Shown: piece by piece, positions 1,635 through 32,000 of the stretch | How the letters are laid out: every line of letters begins with the position of its first letter | Numbering within the stretch: position 1 is the stretch's first letter | Source of the DNA: Bdellovibrionota bacterium | Lineage (GTDB): Bacteria > Bdellovibrionota > UBA1018 > CAUJDS01 | DNA length: 32,000 nt | Reading direction: 5' to 3' | NCBI GenBank assembly: GCA_963169695.1 | Contig: CAUJDS010000062.1 | Coordinates: 75,022-107,021, forward strand | The notes under the pieces: model-generated | Seen by the model: the letters and a program-made list of their open reading frames with translations, nothing else | Database searches by the model: none | Told to the model about the DNA's origin: nothing | Translations under genes and position numbers: made by a program

Positions 1635-2114
1635 TTGCAATTAGACGCGCTGGGCCAGATAATGGAACTTGAGGTACGTTGCGTGTTTACTCCATCACCA
1701 GTCCCCAAGAAGCCACAAAAGAAGGCCCGCAAAGGTCACTCCTTCCATCTCAAGCGGGCTACCGGACAGCTGAGAACAGTGGACGGGCCGCTTGGCAGCA
1801 AGCCAATCACCGCCATGATTCGAGTGATGCTCAATGACTTTAAACCCTATGAAGTCGATTTCTTTTCTAACGTCAAGCTCCCCCAAGGAGAGATGGCCGC
1901 CTTAACAATGGAAGCGCCCGCGCGCTTTTTTCAGAAAGGTAAAGTCATGCGATGCGAGGAGGCTATCCCGTCGAGTAAGATTGTTACCGACACTGCCTTC
2001 AAATATCGACTGACCTTGAAGTTTCAATTTGAATCGCCCGAGCAAGAGTCCACCGTAAAGGCGTTTGTCATGGCGATCAGAAATGAACACCTAAAGGTTG
2101 ATGCAGCTGCTTAA
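1635..2114 (+). CDS. hypothetical protein, possibly a degenerate PilZ-like beta-barrel
   Basis: 159-aa ORF (TTG start; ATG alternative at 1662). The C-terminal pattern YRLTLKFQFESPEQESTVKAFVMAI resembles PilZ C-termini, and NVKLPQGEMAAL loosely resembles the D/NxSxxG region, but no clean RxxxR is present. The functional call is weak. Confidence 0.4.
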   Translation: MQLDALGQIMELEVRCVFTPSPVPKKPQKKARKGHSFHLKRATGQLRTVDGPLGSKPITAMIRVMLNDFKPYEVDFFSNVKLPQGEMAALTMEAPARFFQKGKVMRCEEAIPSSKIVTDTAFKYRLTLKFQFESPEQESTVKAFVMAIRNEHLKVDAAA

Positions 2115-3163
2115 CTCATGAGGGCAAGGAATTCGTCCCAGTGATTGCGAAGCTTCCCTTTGAGTCGAAGGACAGCCTGAGTATGAAGCTGACTAACTCG
2201 TGATTCAGTCACATCCAGAACTTTTCCGATTTCTTTGAGGTTCAAGTCTTCGTAATAATACAGAGATAAAACCAGACGCTGCTTTTCGGGGAGTTCCTTG
2301 ATTGCTTCGGCAATCATCCGCTTGAGCGATGCCAAATTGACTTCACTAAAAGGATTGGCAACACGTGGACTACCATCCATCATATTCTGAAGGCTTTTTT
2401 TGTCCGCCTTTGAAAAGCTGGTTAGGTCATCAAACGATAAAATAGAAACACTTCGAACTTGATTGAGAAGGTCATGGAACTCTTCTTTCGAAAGGTTTAG
2501 CTCGCTACAAATCTCATCATCCGATGCCTGACGCCCTTTGTCCTGCTCAATTTTTGCATAAGCTCTTTCCAACATCTTGGCCTTCTCACGAACAGAGCGA
2601 GGCACCCAATCCTGAGCACGCAGTTCGTCTAGTATCGCGCCACGAATTCGAAACTCAGCATAAGTCTTAAACTTATTGTCTCGACTGGAATCGTATTTAT
2701 CAATGGCATCCATTAATCCAATAACGCCGGAGCTAATAAGATCATCCAATTCAATATTTGCTGGCAATCTCGCCGCAATTCTCTGAGCGATGTATTTTAT
2801 CAAAGGAGCAAATTCAATAATAAGGCTTTCACGACCTGTATTTGCTGGTGAGCAATCATCTTTTACAAAAGAGCCAGTCGTGCGATCCCGCTCCATCTCT
2901 CTTCTGATTTCTGCCTGCAGCTCCTCTTCTTGGCGCTTTCGCTCCTCGAGCTCTTTCAATTCTTCAACTGCAGCTTCCATCTTTTCAGCTTTGGTCAGTT
3001 CTCGCTTTGGTCTAACTCTGGCTTTCGCAGTCGCAGGCTTGCTCACCCCACTTTTTGCAGCAGCCTTCACAGGAGGCTTGCTCAGCTTTTCTGGCTTCGT
3101 CGGAGTCGACTTCTTTGCTGGTTTACTGACTTTTGATCGAGATTCCTTCTCAGGCACTGCCAT
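2111..3163 (-). CDS. fliA: flagellar sigma factor sigma-28 (FliA/WhiG family) with a ~110-aa N-terminal extension
   Basis: Region 2 (DLISSGVIGLMDAIDKYD, FKTYAEFRIRGAILDELR) and region 4.2 (LSLYYYEDLNLKEIGKVLDVTESRVSQLHTQAVLRLK). It is the last gene of the fla block, after flhF-flhG. The start overlaps the flhG stop by 14 nt. The N-terminal 110 aa are K/P/A-rich followed by a charged helix. Confidence 0.9.
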   Translation of the reverse strand: MAVPEKESRSKVSKPAKKSTPTKPEKLSKPPVKAAAKSGVSKPATAKARVRPKRELTKAEKMEAAVEELKELEERKRQEEELQAEIRREMERDRTTGSFVKDDCSPANTGRESLIIEFAPLIKYIAQRIAARLPANIELDDLISSGVIGLMDAIDKYDSSRDNKFKTYAEFRIRGAILDELRAQDWVPRSVREKAKMLERAYAKIEQDKGRQASDDEICSELNLSKEEFHDLLNQVRSVSILSFDDLTSFSKADKKSLQNMMDGSPRVANPFSEVNLASLKRMIAEAIKELPEKQRLVLSLYYYEDLNLKEIGKVLDVTESRVSQLHTQAVLRLKGKLRNHWDEFLALMS

Positions 3164-3902
3164 AACTGAGCCCCACTTCCATCCTAGAATGCATCAATCT
3201 TTGATGCCAATCCACCATGCGTCTTGTCGCCAACTCGGCGCAAGCACCTGGTGAAAACCCATTCCTTAATTCTATCAGGTTTTTATTTCCTGCGATAACT
3301 TTGGAAACATTTTTTATTCGAGGAAACGCGCCTAAGTAATCAAACTCAAGTTGCGGAACCGCTCGCACTTCTCGCTGCAATAAATAGAATTGAGACCTCG
3401 CCTCTGTCTGAGATGCCACCTGATTGACGATAACTCCCACGCTGCTTCTTAGATCTAACTGCGGGACTTCATTCGTCAAAAATATGCCGTCCTCTAATAA
3501 ACTAAAGCGGTCCCCTGTCGTCACAAGAATTTGGCGATCCACACCAGTAATCGACCTTTTCGACTCGACCAGTATATTGTCATAGGTTGCGTGGGATTCG
3601 GCCCTACCAATCCAATCTGCCAAAGTGACCTGGCTCAATGCTCCGAGAAAAGGCGCTACACATAGACGATCGATCGATCCTTTGAGCATTCTAGGGATCG
3701 AAGCGTAGCCCATGGGATTTTGAACTTCCTCTACTACCAAAACACTCTTACCCTCAGAAACCAACTGCGCCGCAATTGCACTAATAATTAGGCTCTTACC
3801 CGCACCTGGTCGACTACTCAAAAAGGAGGTCGTACGACCCAAAATCGCCACATTGGAGTGTTCGGCCACCATTTTTCTTAGCTTCTCGGCTTGATCCATC
3901 AC
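3150..3902 (-). CDS. flhG: FlhG/YlxH (MinD/ParA-family) flagellar number regulator, divergent ATPase motifs
   Basis: N-terminal DQAEKLR matches the FlhG DQAxxLR motif, and the gene sits directly after flhF. The P-loop region reads SSRPGAGKS, whereas I recall B. subtilis YlxH as SGKGGVGKS. GTG 3902 or ATG 3899 overlaps the flhF TGA. Confidence 0.75.
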   Translation of the reverse strand: MMDQAEKLRKMVAEHSNVAILGRTTSFLSSRPGAGKSLIISAIAAQLVSEGKSVLVVEEVQNPMGYASIPRMLKGSIDRLCVAPFLGALSQVTLADWIGRAESHATYDNILVESKRSITGVDRQILVTTGDRFSLLEDGIFLTNEVPQLDLRSSVGVIVNQVASQTEARSQFYLLQREVRAVPQLEFDYLGAFPRIKNVSKVIAGNKNLIELRNGFSPGACAELATRRMVDWHQRLMHSRMEVGLSYGSA

Positions 3903-9445: not shown

Positions 9446-10228
9446 CTATACTGCAAAGCTCTTCATAAGACTTCCAACCACCAATTCCCAACCATCCACA
9501 AGGACAAAGAGAAGGATCTTGAATGGCAAAGAGATCATCATAGGAGGAAGCATCATCATACCCATTGCCATAAGGACACTAGCTACGACCATATCCAGAA
9601 CCAGAAACGGCAGATACAACATGAATCCAATTTGAAAGGCAGTCTTCAATTCACTGATTACAAAAGCAGGAACCAGCGCATAAGTAGGAACTTCTGATCG
9701 GTTTTTGGGCTTGGCTTGCTTGGTCATGCCTAGAAAAAGTTCAAGGTCCTTTTCTCGTGTTTGGGCAAACATAAAGTCGCGAACTGGAACTTCTGCGAGT
9801 TTAAAAGCTGAACTTTGATCTAACTTTTCGTCTAAATAGGGCTGAAGCGCGGTGTCGTTGATCTTCTGCCAAGTGGGAGCCATAACAAAGAATGATAAAA
9901 ATAATGACAAGCCAACAATCAGTTGGTTAGGAGGCATCTGCTGAGTGCCGAGTGACTGACGGAGAAAACTCAGCACGACGACAATTCTGGTAAAAGAAGT
10001 CATCATTATAAGAATGGCCGGGGCAAGTGTCAGTACGGTCAGAAGAATGACTATCCTCAGAACGGACACCAACTCCGTTGGACTGGACCCATTGGGAAAG
10101 CTCATGCTGAAGTTCGGCAATCCTAGTCCACCAGCTACAGCAGATCCTTTCGATTGTGCGAAAGCTGATGCGGATAGGATTAATAGCCAACCCAGTAAGA
10201 AGGAAAGTTGCAGAAAGCGTTGCTTCAT
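9446..10228 (-). CDS. fliP: flagellar export apparatus protein FliP
   Basis: Signal peptide followed by FTRIVVVLSFLRQSLGTQQMPPNQ and ISELKTAFQIGF, MLPPMMISLPFKILLFVLVDGW. Confidence 0.96.
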   Translation of the reverse strand: MKQRFLQLSFLLGWLLILSASAFAQSKGSAVAGGLGLPNFSMSFPNGSSPTELVSVLRIVILLTVLTLAPAILIMMTSFTRIVVVLSFLRQSLGTQQMPPNQLIVGLSLFLSFFVMAPTWQKINDTALQPYLDEKLDQSSAFKLAEVPVRDFMFAQTREKDLELFLGMTKQAKPKNRSEVPTYALVPAFVISELKTAFQIGFMLYLPFLVLDMVVASVLMAMGMMMLPPMMISLPFKILLFVLVDGWELVVGSLMKSFAV

Positions 10229-11298
10229 AGTGATTTCATGCCTTCCATTCGCCGTCGAATACGCTCTCTTACAGAGGCCGAACCCTTGAGAGGGGTTTTA
10301 GGAGCATAATGGTCATGACTACTGACAAGAAGGTCGGCAAAAGAAGCTGAGCCAGCTGAAGTTGCTCCACTTGGAGCTTTTGCATTCTCAATAAAAGATT
10401 CCTCTTCTTTTTCTTCCTCTGACGAATGGTCGGTACTAATGAGATTGATACTTCCATTGGAGATTCCAAGGACCATTCTCTTTGTACCAATTTCTACAAC
10501 AGCGATCTGCGCGTTGGGACCGAGGGACTGAGTGGCAACAATTCGAATGTTTCCGGGCGCATTTCCATCTTGCGGAACCCAGCGCGTGAGCCATTTAAAT
10601 ATTCTTTGGTGGGATCGCCGACTCTCGCCCTTATGCTTAGTCTTTGATGCCTTCTTAAGAAAAGCTGCCACGAATACAAAGGCCATTATCACAATGAGAA
10701 GTAAAACGAGGATTCGTAGAGGAGATCCTTCTTCTTTTTTTAAACCGAGCGAAGTCGTGGACCCAGACGAAAGGTCTTTATTCAACACTTCCTTGAGAAG
10801 TGCCTTGTCGGTTAGAGAGACCGTAGGACTTACGAATTCGTTAGAAGGGGCGGGAGCCTTCATAGCCTGAGCTGCCTGAACACTAATCTTGTCACTCAGA
10901 ACGCGATCATTGGGCAAGTGAATGGAAAGTGTTCGTCCATTTAGGCTTACTTTGACTTGAGATTGCAATTGCTCGGCATTGCCTTTAACGGTCAGTCGGC
11001 ACCGCACCACGTTGGGAGTGTATTGGTAAGCAAATATTTTGCTAACCACACCCTCTTCGACGTTTACTATTTTAGCTGGATAAGTAGCGACTTCATCAAA
11101 AGAAACCTGGACGATATCTCGAAAAAACTCCGTCTTAAATTGGCTCTTTTTTAAGGCCCGGTCAAAAGACAGTTCAATGCGATTGGGCTCAGCAACTTTG
11201 ACCTCCCGTAAGATACTCATCGACCAGGCCTGACTTGCAGGATATGCAACCCAAAGGATGCCTAACCAAAACCACCGAAAACTTCCTGTTCCCATCAT
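10225..11298 (-). CDS. fliO: FliO-like protein with an N-terminal exported beta-rich (AMIN-like) extension
   Basis: Sits in the fliO position between fliN and fliP. Single TM at aa ~193-214, then a FliO-like core IRIVATQSLGPNAQIAVVEIGTKRMVLGISNGSINLI. aa 1-26 look like a signal peptide and aa ~28-129 show an alternating beta pattern. 357 aa, much longer than the FliO proteins I recall. Confidence 0.7.
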   Translation of the reverse strand: MMGTGSFRWFWLGILWVAYPASQAWSMSILREVKVAEPNRIELSFDRALKKSQFKTEFFRDIVQVSFDEVATYPAKIVNVEEGVVSKIFAYQYTPNVVRCRLTVKGNAEQLQSQVKVSLNGRTLSIHLPNDRVLSDKISVQAAQAMKAPAPSNEFVSPTVSLTDKALLKEVLNKDLSSGSTTSLGLKKEEGSPLRILVLLLIVIMAFVFVAAFLKKASKTKHKGESRRSHQRIFKWLTRWVPQDGNAPGNIRIVATQSLGPNAQIAVVEIGTKRMVLGISNGSINLISTDHSSEEEKEEESFIENAKAPSGATSAGSASFADLLVSSHDHYAPKTPLKGSASVRERIRRRMEGMKSL

Positions 11299-16409: not shown

Positions 16410-17987
16410 CTAAGCAATGACATCCAGTCTCTGGTTAAGCAAAGGTGTCGCCACCTTTCTCTCTGAGTGACCTTTGGTCAAATACTCTTTTGATTCTTGT
16501 CGCAATCCTTGATGGCCTTGCCGCTCTCTCTCTTGTTGTCCAGAAGGCTGATTCCATGAGTTGTTGGAATGATCACCCAACGATCCCATGAAGTCCTGCC
16601 TGTCAGGCATTGGAGCAGAAGACGGCGTCACATGGAAATCTACCTTCGAGAGCACTAGATTCTGACTGGCCAATTTCTCCGTCAAAGAAGAGAGGCTTTC
16701 CTCTAGGATCTTCCTTGAACCTTCGTCGGCTGCCGTAATCCTTAACCCTACGCGATTTCCAAAGGTGGTGACCTTGAGACTAACTTCTCCAAGGCTTTCA
16801 GGCTTAAGACGGATATGAACTTCACCTCCGCCCGTACCTGCCACTTGACGAATCTCTTGACCCAAATTCATCAGGCTTTCTGAAGACAAACGATTCTGCG
16901 CCATTGATCCCTGCACAACATGACCCACTACTTCCGACGGAGCCGGCCTTACAGGGTTTATTCCCCCTTCAGTAGCGAGGCTGTGCTGAGCCTGGATGGC
17001 CTGAGCCGTCGGCGAAAGAACATCTTCCACTGGAAGGAATTCTTTTTTCGAACGGTCCTGCAAGATTCCAATCTCTTGAGTCCCCGCAGAATTTCCTGGC
17101 AGATAGTTTTGGGCCAAAAACTCCTTAGCAGGAATCCCTTTAGTAAGAGGCAGCGGTTCAACAGTATCTCTTACAGACCTGGACTGATCCATGGCCTTCA
17201 GAAATTCCATTCCTCCCATGGGGCTCTTGATGGGCCCACTGGGACGCCCCTCTGACTTAGGATTGGGCTGAGCGAGAATCGCAACAGGCATAGATTCTGC
17301 CTGATAGAGTCCCTGAAGTTCTTTCAGAGCCGAAAGCGGAACTTCTTGCTGACGTGCTATCTCCATTGGCCGAGCTTCTGGGTTTGTAATAACCGCATTA
17401 GAATGACTTCCCTGAGAAGGGGCCTTGCCTTGTAAATGAGGCAAACTCGCGAGCAATTGTTCTAATTCTGGTGAAACAGCTGCTGGGGCTTTTCCTTCTA
17501 TCTTGGGTCCGGCCTTTTCTAATTCCGCGTTCGTGCGGATGCTTGGCTTAGGCGATATTCCATCTGCCAGTACCTGGCTTGGTACAAGGCCATCTGCTAC
17601 TTTGAGGTCAGGTTTGCTGGTTTTAGGAACAGGTTCCTTTCCAGCCGCAACTTCCATTGAGGCGGCCTTGACGGGCGCTTCCTCCGAAATCACTTCTCGT
17701 GGAATCAAAGTAGGCTGAGGCATTTGTACAACCACGGACTGAGCAAGATTCACCGGAGATCCAGAGGTTGGTACCTCTTCCTTCGGTGCAATCCACTGTG
17801 GCTGCTGAATCATTGTTATCAGCGGCAATGCGTCTTCCTCTACTTTTTTGAGCGCTTGCTCAAAAGAAGCATTGGACTCCGAATCGGACGCCTTAGACAA
17901 TGCTAGATCTTGCAGGTTCTCAATAGCCTGAGACTGTACTTGTGAAACAGGTACAGTCGGTATGTTGAGATTACCCATTAGATCCAT
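16410..17987 (-). CDS. fliK: flagellar hook-length control protein FliK
   Basis: P/Q/S/A-rich low-complexity N-terminal two thirds. C-terminal Flg_hook-type domain GGGEVHIRLKPESLGEVSLKVTTFGNRVGLRITAADEGSRKILEESL. Positioned between the ylxF-like gene and flgD. Confidence 0.88.
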   Translation of the reverse strand: MDLMGNLNIPTVPVSQVQSQAIENLQDLALSKASDSESNASFEQALKKVEEDALPLITMIQQPQWIAPKEEVPTSGSPVNLAQSVVVQMPQPTLIPREVISEEAPVKAASMEVAAGKEPVPKTSKPDLKVADGLVPSQVLADGISPKPSIRTNAELEKAGPKIEGKAPAAVSPELEQLLASLPHLQGKAPSQGSHSNAVITNPEARPMEIARQQEVPLSALKELQGLYQAESMPVAILAQPNPKSEGRPSGPIKSPMGGMEFLKAMDQSRSVRDTVEPLPLTKGIPAKEFLAQNYLPGNSAGTQEIGILQDRSKKEFLPVEDVLSPTAQAIQAQHSLATEGGINPVRPAPSEVVGHVVQGSMAQNRLSSESLMNLGQEIRQVAGTGGGEVHIRLKPESLGEVSLKVTTFGNRVGLRITAADEGSRKILEESLSSLTEKLASQNLVLSKVDFHVTPSSAPMPDRQDFMGSLGDHSNNSWNQPSGQQERERQGHQGLRQESKEYLTKGHSERKVATPLLNQRLDVIA

Positions 17988-18489
17988 TGTTTTTTTCCAC
18001 TCCTTTCTTGGTTTGTTTGGTTTTTCCTAACGCCATCAGCTCCGCGAGCCTCGAAGAGACCTGAGGATCCATGGCGGAAAGAACTTTAGCTAAAATAGGA
18101 GCGGACAATCGAGTCGCAGCAGGAACGCTCAATGCATCCTCTGTTTGAGCAAGAATTACTGCCGCTGCTTTTGGACTCATTTTTTCGAGCGTCTCGACCA
18201 TCTTCGAAATACGTTCTTCATTTTTTGCTTCAAATAATTCGGATGCGGCTTTCACTTGCTTTCGAAGTTCTTCGATTTTTTTTATTTCTTCCTGAATCGC
18301 AATTTCTCTCTGCTTGAGGTCTTCTTCTTTCTTGTTTAAAACCGCCTGCTGCTCTTTGAGTGATGCTTTTTGTCGGACCAAATCTTGTAGGGCCGTTTCA
18401 TCCACTAAACAGCGCTCCCCTTCAGATTCTGCGCGGGCTGCAAATCCAAAGAGAATCAATGTCAGTACAGGCCATTGAGAAATCCTCAT
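17971..18489 (-). CDS. YlxF/FlbB-like flagellar protein (MgtE-N-like helical domain) with N-terminal signal/anchor
   Basis: Hydrophobic N-terminus, then a coiled coil, then ISKMVETLEKMSPKAAAVILAQTEDALSVPAATRLSAPILAKVLSAMDPQ (MgtE_N-type pattern). It occupies the same position as B. subtilis ylxF, between fliJ and fliK. Confidence 0.65.
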   Translation of the reverse strand: MRISQWPVLTLILFGFAARAESEGERCLVDETALQDLVRQKASLKEQQAVLNKKEEDLKQREIAIQEEIKKIEELRKQVKAASELFEAKNEERISKMVETLEKMSPKAAAVILAQTEDALSVPAATRLSAPILAKVLSAMDPQVSSRLAELMALGKTKQTKKGVEKNNGSNG

Positions 18490-24308: not shown

Positions 24309-24746
24309 TTACCTAACTATCTCAAGTGCTTTTTGTGCCATTGACTTTGCTGCACCCATTGCTGTGACATTCGCCTCATAGGCTCTCTGCGCACTAATCA
24401 TATTTGCCATTTCTTCAGCGGGATTGACGTTCGGCATAGCAACATATCCCTGAGGATCAGCATCTGGATGCGAAGGATTGTAAACCATGCGAGGACCTGA
24501 GGGATCTTCTTGAACATCCATTACCAATACCCCTTGGATATCCTCGTCTAATTCGCTTTCTAGAATTTCTCCGAAGCCTTCTCGGTCTGGTATGGCTCCA
24601 AATACTGGGTCCTTGCGCTTGTAGGGACCCCCCGCTTCCGTTCGCGTTGTATCGGCGTTGGCGAGGTTGCTGGAGATCGTATTCATGCGCTTCATTTGAG
24701 CGTCTAATCCGGATGAACTCACCCGCATTGAAGAAAAGAAGTCCAT
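24309..24746 (-). CDS. flgC: flagellar proximal rod protein FlgC
   Basis: SSSGLDAQMKRMNTISSNLANADTT N-terminus and MISAQRAYEANVTAMGAAKSMAQKALEI C-terminus. Confidence 0.96.
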   Translation of the reverse strand: MDFFSSMRVSSSGLDAQMKRMNTISSNLANADTTRTEAGGPYKRKDPVFGAIPDREGFGEILESELDEDIQGVLVMDVQEDPSGPRMVYNPSHPDADPQGYVAMPNVNPAEEMANMISAQRAYEANVTAMGAAKSMAQKALEIVR

Positions 24747-25162
24747 TATCGATTTCCTCCGCCTTCAGTGATGGCGTATCGAACCATACCCAGTTTTTTC
24801 TTCATTGCTTCCACTGAGGAAGAGTAAAGAATTTGATTCTCCGCTAGTTTTGCCATTTCAGCTGCTCGATCTACGGTATTCCCATCCAGAGACTCTACGC
24901 CATTGGGGTCGTCATATATTTCTGGGGATATGGGCTCGCCTTCGCGCGGAACGATATGATGAGGATTTTCTCCAGCAAGCTTAAGCTCATCCGTCTCTCC
25001 CAAAGCTTCTCGAAGCTCTTGTTCGAAATCAATTTCTTTTGCCTTAAATCCTGGCGTGTCGGCATTAGCTATATTGGAACTGACAACGTTCTGCTTCATG
25101 AGACGCAGATCCATGGATTGACTAAGGGTGCCTATTGTATTGTCAAAGACTCCTGAACTCAT
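24746..25162 (-). CDS. flgB: flagellar proximal rod protein FlgB
   Basis: RLMKQNVVSSNIANADTPGFKAK motif and LAENQILYSSSVEAMKKKL C-terminus. First gene of the structural block. Confidence 0.95.
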   Translation of the reverse strand: MSSGVFDNTIGTLSQSMDLRLMKQNVVSSNIANADTPGFKAKEIDFEQELREALGETDELKLAGENPHHIVPREGEPISPEIYDDPNGVESLDGNTVDRAAEMAKLAENQILYSSSVEAMKKKLGMVRYAITEGGGNR

Positions 25163-25203: not shown

Positions 25204-25247
25204 CCAAAATAAGTAGGTAGGGAGGAAATTGCCTAGCCTCCCTACCT
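25204..25247 (-). terminator. rho-independent-type terminator after the sigma-54 activator gene
   Basis: Minus strand, 9 nt after the stop: AGGTAGGGAGG-CTAGGCAATTT-CCTCCCTACCT (perfect 11-bp stem at 25215-25225 / 25237-25247), followed by ACTTATTTTGG. The T-tract is interrupted and short. Confidence 0.55.
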
Positions 25248-25256
25248 GCTTGCCAC

Positions 25257-26228
25257 TTAAACGTGAATCCCAAGGCGTCGATAATCGGCTAATTTATTTC
25301 GAAGTGTACGGATCGAAATTCCCAATGCTCGAGCCGTATGTGTACGATTTCCCTTGTGAAACTCAAGGGCTTCGAGAATCACGGAGCGTTCGATATCATC
25401 CAGCGTGCGTCCAGGAGCCCAATTGATCTTCTCGGATGGATCCGAAAGGAGGGAGGCTTCCATTACAGTATTTGAACGCTGACTTTCTATCTGGATATCT
25501 GTTGCTTCGACTAATGTCTGACTTGCAGTAATCACTGCGCGCTCAATAACGTTCTCTAGCTCTCGGATATTGCCTGGCCATCCATACTGATTTAGCTTTC
25601 CCATGGCATCCGGTGAGAAACCCTTAATCGGCTTCTGGTTTTTCTCAGCGTACTTTCGCATAAAGCTTTCAGCCAACAACTCTACATCTCCTAACCGGTC
25701 CTTAAGAGGAGGCAAAGTGAAATTGACGACATTCAATCGATAGTAGAGGTCTTCGCGAAAGCTGCCGTCTTTGATACATTCCGTGAGGTTCTTATTAGTA
25801 GTTGCTACAATTCGCACATCTACTGGAACGGGCCTTCGTCCGCCAATTCTATCGACCTCTCCTTGTTGGAGAACTCTCAATAACTTAGCCTGCAAACGGA
25901 TATCCATCTCTGATATTTCATCCAGAAGTAAGGTACCGCCATTTGCCAATTCGAATTTTCCGGCTTTGCTAGATACGGCTCCCGTAAAGGCACCACGCTC
26001 GTAGCCAAATAACTCTGACTCCAATAGGTTCTCTGGAATGGCAGCGCAATTTATTGCCACGAAGGGACGAGCGCTTCTATTGCTGCTTTTATGTACCAAC
26101 GCCGCCATGAGCTCCTTCCCAGTGCCGCTTTCACCCTGAATGAGTACGGTTGCCTTGCTTTGTGCCACTGTTTTTGCGAGTTGGATCAAATCTCGCATCC
26201 TGCGATCCGCGGTCACTATCTGACTCAT
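25257..26228 (-). CDS. sigma-54-dependent transcriptional activator (bEBP) lacking an N-terminal regulatory domain
   Basis: The AAA+ core starts at about aa 10 (ATVLIQGESGTGKE Walker A, LLLDEI Walker B, ERGAFTGA sigma-54 contact loop). Fis-type HTH GNRTHTARALGISIRTLRNKL at the C-terminus. An in-frame TAA lies two codons upstream of the ATG, so no longer N-terminus is possible. ATGA overlap with the upstream TPR gene. Confidence 0.92.
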   Translation of the reverse strand: MSQIVTADRRMRDLIQLAKTVAQSKATVLIQGESGTGKELMAALVHKSSNRSARPFVAINCAAIPENLLESELFGYERGAFTGAVSSKAGKFELANGGTLLLDEISEMDIRLQAKLLRVLQQGEVDRIGGRRPVPVDVRIVATTNKNLTECIKDGSFREDLYYRLNVVNFTLPPLKDRLGDVELLAESFMRKYAEKNQKPIKGFSPDAMGKLNQYGWPGNIRELENVIERAVITASQTLVEATDIQIESQRSNTVMEASLLSDPSEKINWAPGRTLDDIERSVILEALEFHKGNRTHTARALGISIRTLRNKLADYRRLGIHV

Positions 26229-28924
26229 GACTTACCCTCCTTGGTTTCTAGCGCCTCTTGCGCTAGTTTTTTCCAAAAGTCATCCTCCGGACTTTTTAGA
26301 ATTTCTTTTAAAGTACTGATAATTTCTGACTGTTTTTCGGATTTTCCAGTCTTTTCGAGCGCCCGGGCATACGAAAACAGCGTCCGATTGTCTTTCGTGC
26401 CTTCTTTTAAAATTTCTGAGTAGTAAGATGCAACCTCACCCCACTTAGCATTGGCCTCGGCCATTTCTATAAGAAGAGCATAGACGTCGCTTTTGCCAGT
26501 TAAGACGGGAAGGAGCGTGCTAGAAATGGAATCCGCTGGTTTAGGGTCTTCTTTTTTTATTTTTAGAAGCAAGTCTTGCAAAAGCTTCGTAGCGGTCTCA
26601 AAATCTTTTTGTTTTCGGTATAGCCTTGCAAGCCAAAACTTTAGCTTATTAGCATCCGCCACTGATGGCTTTCCAAGTAACTCTGCCTTCGTGCCGTGCT
26701 GAATGGCCGAACTAATAACGCCCGTCTCCTCCGCCAGCACGCCGAGAAGAAGTTCTTTTTCGTAGGAATGAGGAGATTCGGCATCTACTTTCTCTAGGTG
26801 CTCCACGATAGCTTTTTCTTCCTTTTCACCCGTACCCATCCACAAAGAGATTGCTTTAGTGAAGTGTTCCTCAGATTGACGGGCTCGGACGTCAGCGTCG
26901 CCTGGCTGACTCGAAGCTAACTCGCGTTTTCTCCAGTCGGCCGTCAGCTTTTCGTATTTTTCACTTAGATTTTGTGCAAATTCTCCTAACGAAAGTTTCG
27001 ATGCTGCTTGAGAGAGTCTTAGAAGAAAATCATAAAGAATGGCTGGAGATTTGTCAGAAAAAGCCCATTCGTATTTCTTATAGAAACTGACTGCCTCAAA
27101 GTCTTTTTCATGATCTAGCAGGGCCATGATATATCGCCGAAACACAAGATTGAAGGCCGCGGTCACAATCTCTCGATTGTTCTGACCGAGTTGACCACCG
27201 ATAAGACGCGCTCCCACTGAGATCGCCTCGGCGTCTTCACCAAGGGTCACGAATGTCCGAAATTCGCTCATTCCTTTCATGTCTTGATAGTCGCGCATGT
27301 CAATCTCGGACGATGCCTTCAGATTTGCGGCTTCGTCGTTGAAGAACTTTCGAGCTGAATCTAGGTTGAATCCGCCATGGTCTCCGCAGGGGGCCAATCG
27401 CAGGCGCGCTAGGGTTGCTCCCGAACTGAGTGGATTGTCATTGATGGCTTGATAGAGCCACTTCTGAAAGTCGGGCGTTACCCCGTTTTTTCTGCCTTCG
27501 ATTTCGCCTAGACGATAGCTTGCACGCCAGCTTGTAGGATGACTTCGATGACGAGAAAGGTAGTCCTTGAATTCCTTGTCAGAACGATCCCACTCTCCCA
27601 ACCAGTACAAAGCCTCGCCCCGATTGACGCCCACCTCGGCATATTTTTTTGCTTCAGTGGGAAAAGCCTGAACGGCTTTATAGTACTGCGCCAAAGCTTG
27701 GGCGTACTGATAGCGATCCAAAAAGAGATCACCCATCTTGAGCGCTGCTTCACCTTTGATTCGTGAATTGGGTCCCTTCTCGGCAACCCACTGGTAGGCT
27801 TCCATTGCACGTTCGGTTTGCTTCAACTCATAGGCCGACTCGGCGACGCCCATGTGGAAACTCCAAACAAGCCGATGCTCTGGATAATTCTTCACAAGCC
27901 AAAGAAAATGTTCCATGGCTTCTAAGGGGTTTTTTTGCACCATGCTTTGCCCGGCCAAATAGATTGCGCTGTGAAGTGCTACAGGTGAGCCAAAGGCCTC
28001 AACCATCAATTCCCTAAAAAGAGCTTTGGCTTTGTCGAAGTACCCGAGTTTAACTAAGGCATTGGCGTGGAGAAACTTCATCTGTCCGCGATGGGACGAC
28101 TTAGGGAAGTCCTTAGCAAAGAACTCGATGGTTCGGATGGCCAAGCCCTGCTGACCTCTCTCATAGAGCTCTAATGCCAAGCGAAGGTACTGAGACTCTT
28201 TGTCAGGCCCCGTGGGTTGCCAATAGGGGTAATCTGAGTCGGGATGCGTAAGTGGATAGATCTTCGAAAAGTCAACCGTGGCGTGAGCGGGGCGGAAGGG
28301 AAGAAAAACATCATACTCCGGGGAAAGTGGCCGCTTGCAAAATTGAGACGCATCAGCGAGTGCCGTATTCTCCTGAAGACTTGCCGTTCTACGCTGGATC
28401 CTGCTCTTGAGCCTTCGTTCCATCTCCTCGTAGGCGCGCTTGCGCTTGTCTGCGAGCTGCTTTTGGTGCACCTCTGCTACGGTTGGGCCTTTCTTCAACC
28501 AAAAATCTAAGACAAACTGCGAAGTCTCGGCAACACGATAGGAGAAAAACTCCATCTGCGGAACGGCGGGCGCATTGTTCCCTTTTGGGTATTTCCAACG
28601 CCCTACAACCCTAAGGCCTTCATCAGAGTCATAAAAGCGCAAAAGGCTTAAACGAGAATCCGAAAGATCTCGAAACTTCTCTACCCACTGGGACTCCAGG
28701 CCAAAAGGCGCCCCTAGATCCGACAAGGAGATGCCCTTAAAGGTTATTTCGAAACCCCCGGGAAGGTCTTTCCATTGATGGTCGATCCCGCTATTGACTC
28801 GGAGGCTCAAACGGCTGTGATCGTCAAAAGTTTGTAGGAAGACTGGAAGGGGCTCTTTGGATGCAGCAGTGAGCAAGAGCGTTGCTCCAATGCCAAATAC
28901 AAAAAATCTGAGCCTCCTGCTCAT
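26225..28924 (-). CDS. exported 899-aa tetratricopeptide-repeat (TPR) protein with an N-terminal beta-rich module
   Basis: Signal-peptide-like N-terminus MSRRLRFFVFGIGATLLLTAAS. aa ~30-150 are beta-pattern (RLSLRVNS..FEITFKGISL..RLSLLRFYDSDEGLRVVGRW..FVLDFW). The remainder is repeated TPR-like helices (e.g. YLRLALELYERGQQGLAIRTIEFF, ANALVKLGYFDKAKALFRELM, AALKMGDLFLDRYQYAQALAQYYKAV). SD GGAG upstream. Confidence 0.8.
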   Translation of the reverse strand: MSRRLRFFVFGIGATLLLTAASKEPLPVFLQTFDDHSRLSLRVNSGIDHQWKDLPGGFEITFKGISLSDLGAPFGLESQWVEKFRDLSDSRLSLLRFYDSDEGLRVVGRWKYPKGNNAPAVPQMEFFSYRVAETSQFVLDFWLKKGPTVAEVHQKQLADKRKRAYEEMERRLKSRIQRRTASLQENTALADASQFCKRPLSPEYDVFLPFRPAHATVDFSKIYPLTHPDSDYPYWQPTGPDKESQYLRLALELYERGQQGLAIRTIEFFAKDFPKSSHRGQMKFLHANALVKLGYFDKAKALFRELMVEAFGSPVALHSAIYLAGQSMVQKNPLEAMEHFLWLVKNYPEHRLVWSFHMGVAESAYELKQTERAMEAYQWVAEKGPNSRIKGEAALKMGDLFLDRYQYAQALAQYYKAVQAFPTEAKKYAEVGVNRGEALYWLGEWDRSDKEFKDYLSRHRSHPTSWRASYRLGEIEGRKNGVTPDFQKWLYQAINDNPLSSGATLARLRLAPCGDHGGFNLDSARKFFNDEAANLKASSEIDMRDYQDMKGMSEFRTFVTLGEDAEAISVGARLIGGQLGQNNREIVTAAFNLVFRRYIMALLDHEKDFEAVSFYKKYEWAFSDKSPAILYDFLLRLSQAASKLSLGEFAQNLSEKYEKLTADWRKRELASSQPGDADVRARQSEEHFTKAISLWMGTGEKEEKAIVEHLEKVDAESPHSYEKELLLGVLAEETGVISSAIQHGTKAELLGKPSVADANKLKFWLARLYRKQKDFETATKLLQDLLLKIKKEDPKPADSISSTLLPVLTGKSDVYALLIEMAEANAKWGEVASYYSEILKEGTKDNRTLFSYARALEKTGKSEKQSEIISTLKEILKSPEDDFWKKLAQEALETKEGKS

Positions 28925-28976: not shown

Positions 28977-28992
28977 AGCAAGCCCAGTGCCA
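28977..28992 (-). promoter_or_regulatory. sigma-54 (RpoN) -24/-12 promoter of the TPR/EBP bicistron
   Basis: Minus strand reads TTGGCACTGGGCTTGCTT, i.e. TGGCAC-N5-TTGC with exact GG-N10-GC spacing. Its 3' end lies ~52 nt upstream of the ATG at 28924. Confidence 0.8.
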
Positions 28993-29095: not shown

Positions 29096-29737
29096 ATGAA
29101 TCACACTTTTTTGACCATCCGTCAGAGAATCTCCTTCTTTCGTTGGACCTTTGACTCTTTTGATAAATATTCACTAACGATTTTCATCTGTTTTCTAGCT
29201 GCGGTTTTGCTTTCTCAGGGCTGTAGCACGGTAGGCTATCTTGTTGGAAATGCTGATCCGGTTTCGCATAAAGCAAGGCTCTACCAAGTCAAACCAATGA
29301 CAGAAATGGGACCCCAGTGGAAAAAAATAGATCCAATCGAAACCAGCGACCGCAAAACTGAGGACGTCCCTCAGAACGAAATCTCGGATTTGGTGTATCA
29401 GAGTCAAAAGACTGCCTCCCTCGTGTCTCTCAACAGCTCTTGCCGAGGAGGAGCGCACTGGGAAGGCAAAACTTTGCAAGACCTTACCAATCTTCTTCTC
29501 ATTGGAATTCATGAATTGGGCGAACGCCAAGAGTCGACATTGCAGATCGACAAAGAGCCAGCCCTCAAGACCCAGTTGACGGGAGTGGTCGAAGGTCGAA
29601 AGAGGAAGATTGAAACCATAGTGATTCTCAGGGATCAGTGTGTCTACGACCTCATGTACTTTTCTTCCGAGAAAAATTTTGCCGTGGATCTGAATGATTT
29701 TGAGCAGTTTGTTGCTTCTCTCACCTTCGCTCGATAA
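29096..29737 (+). CDS. hypothetical lipoprotein
   Basis: Lipobox LLSQGC after the hydrophobic stretch LTIFICFLAAVLL. SD-like AGGAAAAG upstream. No recognisable family. The n-region before the signal peptide is unusually long (23 aa). Confidence 0.6.
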   Translation: MNHTFLTIRQRISFFRWTFDSFDKYSLTIFICFLAAVLLSQGCSTVGYLVGNADPVSHKARLYQVKPMTEMGPQWKKIDPIETSDRKTEDVPQNEISDLVYQSQKTASLVSLNSSCRGGAHWEGKTLQDLTNLLLIGIHELGERQESTLQIDKEPALKTQLTGVVEGRKRKIETIVILRDQCVYDLMYFSSEKNFAVDLNDFEQFVASLTFAR

Positions 29738-31373: not shown

Positions 31374-32000
31374 GTGAAAAAAGACCGCCTCGAAACTGAA
31401 GTAAAAGTGGGACTCTTCGTTGCCATAGGCATAGGGCTAACCATGCTCTCTATTGTTGTTGCAGGTGGATCCGCCATGTGGTTTCAAAGTCAATCTCGCT
31501 ATTACACCTACTTCAAAGACGCCATGGGGATGATCAATGGCGCTAAAGTCATCTTAGACGGTATCCACGTCGGTACGATCGATACGGTGGACTTCGATGC
31601 AGAACGGAAGCGAATCAAAGTTTCTGTCTTGATACAATCGCGCTATCAAAAGTGGATCCGAAATTCGACAGTCTCCGAGATCGCAACCCAAGGGGTATTG
31701 GGAGACAAATTTCTATCATTAAAAAATAATAGTGATAGCGACTCCACCCTATTGCCATCCAACTCTGAGATTCCTTCTGTTGAAGGCGGCGGACTGGGCG
31801 AAGTATTGTCAAGCGGCGGTCAAGTCATAGACAATCTGAAGGCCCTCAGTGCCAGCCTTTCAAGAATCACTCATTCTTTTGAGACCGGTCGGAGGAACGA
31901 TATCTTCTTTGAGAATCTCGCTTCGGCGATGAAGAACCTCAACTCCGTATCCAAAAAATTTGACGACCAAATGACCGACATTGAAATCAAAAGCGCCATC
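31374..32000 (+). CDS. mlaD: MlaD/MCE-domain substrate-binding protein (3' end truncated by window)
   Basis: My own translation from GTG 31374: VKKDRLETEVKVGLFVAIGIGLTMLSIVV (N-terminal anchor), then YYTYFKDAMGMINGAKVILDGIHVGTIDTVDFD (MCE core). The frame stays open to the window end and is not in the ORF track because no stop is reached. Confidence 0.8.
   Translation, partial: MKKDRLETEVKVGLFVAIGIGLTMLSIVVAGGSAMWFQSQSRYYTYFKDAMGMINGAKVILDGIHVGTIDTVDFDAERKRIKVSVLIQSRYQKWIRNSTVSEIATQGVLGDKFLSLKNNSDSDSTLLPSNSEIPSVEGGGLGEVLSSGGQVIDNLKALSASLSRITHSFETGRRNDIFFENLASAMKNLNSVSKKFDDQMTDIEIKSAI

Follow-up and report, generated by a model that had tools for sequence, protein, structure and literature searches.

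Organization of the locus

In this study, we analysed a 32,000-nucleotide (nt) stretch of contig CAUJDS010000062.1 from a Bdellovibrionota bacterium (assembly GCA_963169695.1), hereafter the window, and focused on two overlapping genes directly upstream of flgB. The first encodes an 899-amino-acid (aa) protein with tetratricopeptide repeats (TPRs), and the second encodes a 323-aa sigma-54 activator that lacks a receiver domain. A sequence-only reading of the same DNA had reported both open reading frames (ORFs), their ATGA overlap and the downstream flgB, and all of these were confirmed; their positions, together with that of a promoter, are as follows:

26225..28924, minus strand: gene for the 899-aa PflA-like protein with predicted export (ORF with ATG start)
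25257..26228, minus strand: gene for the 323-aa sigma-54 activator without a receiver (ORF with ATG start; Pfam and NCBIfam)
26225..26228, minus strand: ATGA stop/start overlap between the 899-aa ORF and the activator ORF
28977..28992, minus strand: sigma-54 (-24/-12) promoter TGGCACTGGGCTTGCT (consensus match, about 53 nt upstream of the ATG of the 899-aa gene)
24746..25162, minus strand: flgB (TIGR01396 FlgB, 107.8 bits, cutoff 59)

A strong Shine-Dalgarno sequence, AAGGAGGG, directly precedes the activator ATG, and 94 nt separate the activator stop codon from flgB. The two genes head a flagellar superoperon of about 27 kb (flgB to fliA), in which most junctions overlap or leave gaps of less than 60 nt. 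The co-directional order is flgB, flgC, fliE, fliF, fliG, fliH, fliI, fliJ, a 172-aa ORF, fliK, flgD, a TIGR02530 protein and flgE, followed by fliL, fliM, fliN, fliO, fliP, (fliQ), fliR, flhB, flhA, flhF, a 250-aa ORF and a FliA/WhiG sigma factor. On the other side, the 899-aa gene diverges from a lipoprotein-like gene and mlaE/mlaF.

The promoter is the only exact match to TGGCAY-N5-TTGCW in the 32-kb window, where 0.03 would be expected by chance. Before flgB, the window showed neither a sigma-70-like nor a sigma-28 site, nor a second sigma-54 promoter; the last was absent there even at one mismatch, and a sigma-28 consensus search across the window gave no match. The same sigma-54 promoter most likely drives flgB and the remaining superoperon too, contrary to the earlier claim that the TPR protein is the only co-transcribed partner of the activator.

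Predicted architecture of the 899-aa protein

The 899-aa protein is divided into the following regions:

28856..28924, minus strand: predicted signal peptide, residues 1-23 (basic n-region, hydrophobic core, TAAS/K-type site; low predicted local distance difference test score, pLDDT)
28496..28843, minus strand: AMIN-like beta-sandwich, residues 28-143 (eight strands in both AlphaFold2 models)
28202..28480, minus strand: long helix, residues 149-190, and conserved extended linker, residues 191-241 (DSSP of the model)
26231..28201, minus strand: TPR superhelix, residues 242-898, about 34 helices or about 17 hairpins (model, Pfam and NCBIfam)

Read by eye, the N-terminus, MSRRLRFFVFGIGATLLLTAAS, has the n-, h- and c-type regions of a signal peptide, and homologues carry equivalent signal-peptide-like N-termini followed by a conserved TF-THSRL strand. 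The public annotation starts the gene at a TTG 16 codons after the ATG (883 aa; window 28877-28924 affected), which would remove the signal peptide; we favour the ATG start, which fits the homologue N-termini better. No membrane-spanning segment follows the signal peptide, and the protein is probably exported through the Sec pathway.

We built an AlphaFold2 model of the protein on 51 homologues, and the full-length model reached a pLDDT of 89 and a predicted template modelling score of 0.70. The layout proposed from the sequence was recovered in this confident model, namely a signal-peptide-like N-terminus, beta strands at 28-143 and helical repeats at 242-898, with a helix of 42 residues (149-190) between the sandwich and the linker. 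Multiple TPR Pfam families matched the protein, and the other sequence-family matches were generic (YbgF, 70 bits against a cutoff of 90; PorW; BamD). Within the linker, C196, F207, L208 and D229 are invariant or near-invariant, and the pLDDT of the linker was 83-94 in the full model versus 57-74 without the TPR body. Since the linker was placed confidently only together with the TPR body, the model suggests that it docks in the TPR groove of its own or a neighbouring molecule. The family-invariant residues C196 and C513 could form a periplasmic disulfide.

Structural match suggesting a PflA-type flagellar scaffold

As the sequence-only reading had proposed, we compared the AlphaFold model with 350,542 PDB chains using Foldseek. 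The results showed that the first-ranked match was 9hmf_K, a chain of the Campylobacter jejuni flagellar periplasmic scaffold (E 7e-14, 929 columns), whereas generic TPR proteins started at 5e-10, four orders of magnitude worse; chain L of 9HMF ranked 38th in the same search. The N-terminal fragment modelled alone (pLDDT 86, eight strands) had Escherichia coli AmiC (4bin), the archetype of proteins with an AMIN domain, as its best PDB match, with 120 columns, a root-mean-square deviation (rmsd) of 4.4 Å and an E value of 3.6e-3.

PflA consists of an N-terminal beta-sandwich (AMIN according to Feng et al.), a linker and 16 TPRs that form radial spokes; the spoke touches FlgY with its inner end and holds PflB with the sandwich and linker (PMC12222027, PMC11870540). 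With PflA of C. jejuni and Helicobacter pylori, a periplasmic spoke of the proximal disk, the 899-aa protein shares a predicted Sec signal peptide, a beta-sandwich, a linker, a TPR superhelix of about 16-17 hairpins and a flagellar gene context, in addition to the structural match itself; it may also co-occur with an E-ring protein of the FlgY type, for which the window has a candidate. It differs from PflA in being about 110 residues longer, in the 42-residue helix between sandwich and linker, in having no detectable sequence similarity to PflA and no PflB in view, and in a linker that seemingly docks on its own TPR body. Unlike pflA, the 899-aa gene is the first of the flgB operon and overlaps an activator gene.

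A PflA-type protein in this phylum is already anticipated in the literature, and the protein, though uncharacterized, has been noticed before. Chaban et al. (2018) pointed out the PflA-like protein WP_011165745.1 in the flagellar operon of Bdellovibrio bacteriovorus and speculated that it corresponds to the 12-fold inner-membrane ring seen by cryo-electron tomography (PMC5758724), and Feng et al. (2025) listed "potential PflA" TPR proteins of 882-951 aa for cultured Bdellovibrionota (PMC11870540, Suppl. Table 5). Accordingly, of the earlier proposal that the 899-aa protein is an undescribed periplasmic flagellar accessory, the accessory role is supported by 9hmf_K, AmiC and the sigma-54 promoter, and "undescribed" hardly holds (PMC5758724, PMC11870540). 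The B. bacteriovorus protein (WP_011165745.1 / WP_157865726.1, 926 aa) belongs to the same phylum and is similar in size to the 899-aa protein. In cultured Bdellovibrio (B. bacteriovorus, B. reynosensis), 10 accession numbers separate the "potential PflA" of 926-929 aa from FlgY, which equals the spacing of 10 genes in the window. The TPR accession of Halobacteriovorax vibrionivorans is 9 from FlgY, which fits a lineage without the intervening activator. Our word-based profile search did not reach the cultured Bdellovibrio proteins; size, spacing and the full-length distant family members described below suggest that they are orthologous to the 899-aa protein.

By description, the 899-aa protein can also be likened to MotK of Cereibacter sphaeroides (Fla2) and MotC of Sinorhizobium meliloti, both of them periplasmic TPR proteins that cooperate with the stator and with the E-ring protein MotE. 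An AMIN domain is also present at the N-terminus of MotK (PMC13023049). The gene context of MotK and MotC, in mot/fla2 clusters, differs from that in the window.

The receiver-less activator

Pfam assigned Sigma54_activat to residues 4-169 of the activator, AAA_lid_14 to 177-253 and HTH_8 to 275-316, with nothing N-terminal to them, and the translation contains both GESGTGKE and GAFTGA. Together with an in-frame TAA two codons 5' of the ATG, this upheld the earlier view that the activator consists of an AAA+ core and a helix-turn-helix (HTH) and has no sensory domain. The best NCBIfam model was Caulobacter FlbD (NF050807), at 438.8 bits against an equivalog cutoff of 750, and the next family reached 372 bits. 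The FlbD model aligned at positions 119-445 of 454, showing that the receiver is missing from the activator. The PspF model (TIGR02974) scored 287.6 bits versus a cutoff of 443.55, indicating that the activator is not a PspF orthologue. In most related loci the orthologues measure about 315-345 aa, so the lack of a receiver characterizes the whole clade.

With FlbD of Caulobacter crescentus, the activator shares the AAA+ core with GAFTGA, the Fis-type HTH and a gene position inside an early flagellar operon; it differs in lacking the receiver, in scoring below the cutoff and in being encoded at the operon head, whereas the FlbD gene is at the end. With PspF and HrpR/HrpS, it shares an architecture of AAA+ core and HTH only, without a sensory domain. 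These two precedents had been described correctly in the sequence-only reading, and FlbD and FleT are closer. FleT is likewise a short second activator encoded by an early cistron of a sigma-54-dependent basal-body operon. FleT is not known to have a DNA-binding domain or to work without FleQ, whereas the activator keeps its HTH and is preceded by a scaffold gene in the window. The fleT gene heads the sigma-54-dependent fleT-fliEFGHIJ operon of Rhodobacter/Cereibacter sphaeroides, and FleQ activates this operon and then pairs with FleT (PMC7277832).

Transcription from a sigma-54 promoter means that the activator cannot be made without an active enhancer-binding protein, which could be the activator itself (positive feedback) or another activator. 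Among the window ORFs scanned, we recognized no FliX-like gene and no cytoplasmic antagonist of the PspA or HrpV kind; FliX couples the activity of FlbD to basal-body assembly.

FleQ-type control of the activator by cyclic di-GMP (c-di-GMP) was considered and rejected as unlikely; the residues after the Walker A motif are KELMAAL, not KEVVARN as in FleQ.

Conservation across Bdellovibrionota

A profile of the 899-aa protein retrieved 77 loci from one-genome-per-species Bdellovibrionota assemblies. The results showed that a short receiver-less activator adjoins the TPR gene in every locus that extends past the TPR gene (68/68), and that flgB-flgC-fliE-fliF continues in all of the loci long enough (about 60), with the Mla genes divergent on the other side. 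The overlap between the TPR and activator genes is exactly 4 nt in 32 of the 68 loci and 8 nt in 4 of them; both the synteny and the overlap point to more than a chance arrangement. A sigma-54 promoter precedes the orthologous TPR gene in about 58 of the about 66 loci that hold this region. Three more distant lineages carry it as well, and a fourth has a near match. The synteny is kept at 22-35% protein identity and across several classes. At E<=1e-30, an exhaustive profile search yielded 346 family representatives, the more distant of which are still full-length and score 220-310 bits.

Three of the more distant loci (L079, L081 and L082) have the TPR gene, then a receiver-less activator, then flgB. 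In a fourth (L080:6001-9117), flgB comes immediately after the TPR gene, without an intervening activator; a canonical sigma-54 promoter precedes each of these two genes, and the activator on the far side of the Mla genes contains a receiver. Linkage of the TPR gene to flgB therefore extends more widely than its linkage to the activator.

In L079, a 459-aa HD-GYP-type (HD_5) gene (L079:12998-14377) is inserted between the receiver-less activator and flgB, which hints at a link between c-di-GMP and the operon. The same TPR family is carried by Bdellovibrionota FG-1 and FG-2 (L009 and L063), magnetotactic members of the UBA1018 class ("Bdellonasia"), whose cells each bear one thick flagellum at the pole (PMC13200544).

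A FlgY-like candidate in the superoperon

One further ORF of the superoperon bears on the PflA comparison:

17971..18489, minus strand: 172-aa FlgY/FlbB/MotE-like E-ring candidate in the gap between fliJ and fliK (sequence reading, weak collar_FlbB match)

We read its sequence as comprising a signal peptide and a coiled coil, with an MgtE_N-like stretch at the C-terminus; Pfam MgtE_N gave no match to this ORF. In the public annotation it has neither a name nor a Pfam domain, and a homologue search returned two proteins only, too few for a profile. FlgY/FlbB/MotE E-ring genes typically adjoin fliJ/fliK, and C. jejuni FlgY is 172 aa long with the same layout as this ORF (PMC13023049, PMC11870540). 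The ORF may well encode a FlgY/MotE-type E-ring protein.

The activator-flgB spacer and candidate cis elements

The spacer between the activator gene and flgB contains one structured element:

25206..25251, minus strand: hairpin with an 11-bp G+C-rich stem and an 11-nt loop, followed by UUAUUUU (minimum free energy -23.2 kcal/mol, z = -2.2)

This hairpin may attenuate transcription or stabilize the upstream RNA. Strong hairpins also occur directly after the activator gene in related loci. Spacers of 80-310 nt in relatives (e.g. L011:9873-10173, L046:9795-10106 and L009:9807-10050) fold very stably, down to -137 kcal/mol, and have long hairpins at their start. A c-di-GMP riboswitch was suspected in the spacer, and an Rfam search of the window and eight loci returned no family.

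The motif GGCAY-N5-TTGWA was found in 28/53 spacers of relatives, 27-126 nt before flgB, versus 0.075 expected in shuffles. It is a sigma-54-like promoter with an unusual -12 element that lacks the usual GC. The heptamer CGGCAGA/TTCTGCC was about 10-fold enriched in two regions of the related loci, the activator-flgB spacer and the sequence preceding the TPR promoter (L001-L077; about 2 versus 0.2 per kb in whole loci) and is a candidate shared enhancer. It forms TCTGCCGATCGGCAGA in a few loci, and the tight TGCC-N4-GGCA palindrome is likewise present in only a few loci.

Proposed role and alternatives

We propose that the 899-aa protein is a PflA-type periplasmic motor scaffold and that the overlapping gene encodes an FlbD-like receiver-less activator, both within a sigma-54 flagellar superoperon, and we put the probability of this at roughly 0.65. 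The Sec-exported protein would act as a spoke or ring of the flagellar motor, with the AMIN-like sandwich and conserved linker as one end and the about 17 TPR hairpins as a radial arm. If the protein works like C. jejuni PflA, this arm would contact the coiled coil of the FlgY-like protein, whose gene lies ten genes further downstream, and help to position stator units. The TPR gene would be the first cistron of the sigma-54-dependent superoperon and the ATGA-overlapping activator gene the second, and no activator would be made until the sigma-54 promoter fires. As it lacks an input domain, the activator would be controlled mainly by its amount, and it would most likely reinforce its own operon and/or switch on later sigma-54 flagellar promoters, like FleT and FlbD.

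Several observations weigh against this proposal or limit it. On the structural side, we infer that chain K of 9hmf is PflA from its 773 residues, which equal PflA 16-788. The TM-scores to 9hmf_K were low (0.28/0.32, rmsd 51 Å); such values are expected for flexible superhelices, and the PflA match is to be read as a ranking, not as proof. The AmiC match is marginal at its E value of 3.6e-3, and Pfam AMIN matched none of the 25 N-terminal modules scanned, so the sandwich is AMIN-like at the fold level only. A profile of 51 family members found no PflA chain among the PDB sequences at E<=1, in keeping with the original description of a PflA-like organization without demonstrable sequence likeness, and the family profile and the N-terminal module retrieved only generic or designed TPR proteins, or nothing, from the PDB sequences. 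PflA itself is not conserved in sequence (PMC11870540), and a criterion of sequence homology therefore discriminates poorly. No PflB-like partner is visible in the window, and the best NCBIfam match of the 172-aa ORF is collar_FlbB, the spirochaete collar protein, at E 4.5e-5 and 23 bits against a cutoff of 110. On the regulatory side, no binding site or target of the activator was identified in the window, CGGCAGA is absent near the window's promoters, and GGCAY-N5-TTGWA, the second promoter motif of relatives, was not found in the window. In addition, the hairpin with its U-tract could terminate transcription before flgB, and full termination there would leave flgB without a recognizable promoter.

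A possible, on balance doubtful, alternative is a two-tier or hetero-oligomeric system, in which a second activator fires the promoter of the TPR operon and the operon activator acts on later promoters, alone or in a mixed hexamer. A second receiver-less activator is indeed encoded on the window's contig (L083:1384-2445), about 1 kb past window position 32000, in the gap between metK and mlaD. It is 353 aa long, is 41% identical to the first and has GSFTGA instead of GAFTGA, and a sigma-70-like TTGACA-17-TAGCAT lies upstream of its gene. A short activator (373-405 aa, no receiver match on record) recurs at the same metK-proximal position by the Mla genes in L079, L081 and L082, and L080, which has no operon activator, has its receiver-bearing activator beside the Mla genes. 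The activation of the fleT operon by FleQ, which then pairs with FleT, provides a precedent (PMC7277832). The mixed hexamer would resemble FleQ/FleT or HrpR/HrpS. However, proximity is the only link of the second activator to flagella, and the neighbouring Mla-like genes or distant targets are equally possible; its best families are NifA, PrdR and NorR, not flagellar regulators, and no shared binding motif was found in the window.

A bolder extension of the proposal, which we regard as unlikely, is a self-locking switch: the activator, perhaps with the second one, would fire its own promoter, and its ATGA-tied translation would commit predatory Bdellovibrionota in an all-or-none manner to a single polar flagellum. 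In addition, the PflB-less TPR protein would supply, through linker-in-groove contacts of its own, both the spoke and the rim of a minimal stator scaffold.

It is improbable that the TPR protein is instead a general envelope protein of the YbgF/CpoB, BamD or PilF kind with no motor role, beside flgB merely through inherited gene order. Its best sequence families are the generic ones given above, the neighbouring Mla genes are envelope genes, and its relatives all belong to one phylum, so that the synteny is partly phylogenetic inertia. Nevertheless, the gene has a conserved sigma-54 promoter and reads in the flagellar direction, divergently from the Mla genes; it overlaps an activator gene that scores best against FlbD; the synteny persists at 22-35% identity in several classes; and the top structural match is PflA, not YbgF, BamD or PilF.

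PspF-type receiver-less activators are controlled by partner proteins, and ATGA overlaps are common in operons. The idea, raised in the sequence-only reading, that the TPR protein is an envelope sensor controlling the activator indirectly, as in coupled pairs such as PspA/PspF and HrpV/HrpS, draws on that precedent, on the absence of an input domain and on the strong conservation of the pair and its overlap, but it is very improbable: an exported protein with a signal peptide and no later membrane span cannot contact a cytoplasmic AAA+ core, ordinary ATGA overlaps imply no regulatory partnership, L080 has the TPR gene directly before flgB with a separate sigma-54 promoter for each, the fold matches a structural scaffold of the motor, no PspA-, HrpV- or FliX-like gene was recognized among the window ORFs scanned, and the second activator and the ORF in the FlhG position are other candidates for control.

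Should the 899-aa protein prove to be a spoke of the PflA type, the view of an E-ring with TPR spokes as an ancient and widespread part of flagellar motors would extend to a little-studied group within the Bdellovibrionota, with magnetotactic, probably predatory members, and a simpler, PflB-less version would become available for studying stator positioning. A receiver-less activator between a scaffold gene and flgB behind a sigma-54 promoter would be a compact regulatory design that is unexamined in this phylum. To our knowledge, the combination of a scaffold gene, a receiver-less activator and flgB under one sigma-54 promoter is not described in the literature searched. Both the structural and the regulatory idea have clear precedents, so their value is confirmatory and comparative rather than surprising.

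Other genes of the window

The far end of the flagellar gene string is marked by the sigma factor gene:

2111-3163, minus strand: fliA, far end of the flagellar gene string

The FliA/WhiG sigma factor encoded there is 350 aa long and has an unmatched N-terminal extension of about 110 residues ahead of region 2. The 250-aa ORF (3150-3902, minus strand) occupies the FlhG/FleN position in the gap between flhF and fliA; it is weakly P-loop/MinD-like (CbiA, E 0.0018) and reached no curated family. FliO (10225-11298, minus strand) is unusually long at 357 aa, and the FliO domain covers residues 245-324 only.

The divergent lipoprotein-like ORF (213 aa; 29096-29737, plus strand) has no family match and adjoins mlaE in nearly all loci. 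Its annotated 5' end carries a conserved DNA motif, CTGACG-N4-5-GGTCAAAA (TTTTGACC on the gene's strand). The conservation of this motif at the annotated 5' end suggests that a promoter lies there and that the start codon is further downstream.

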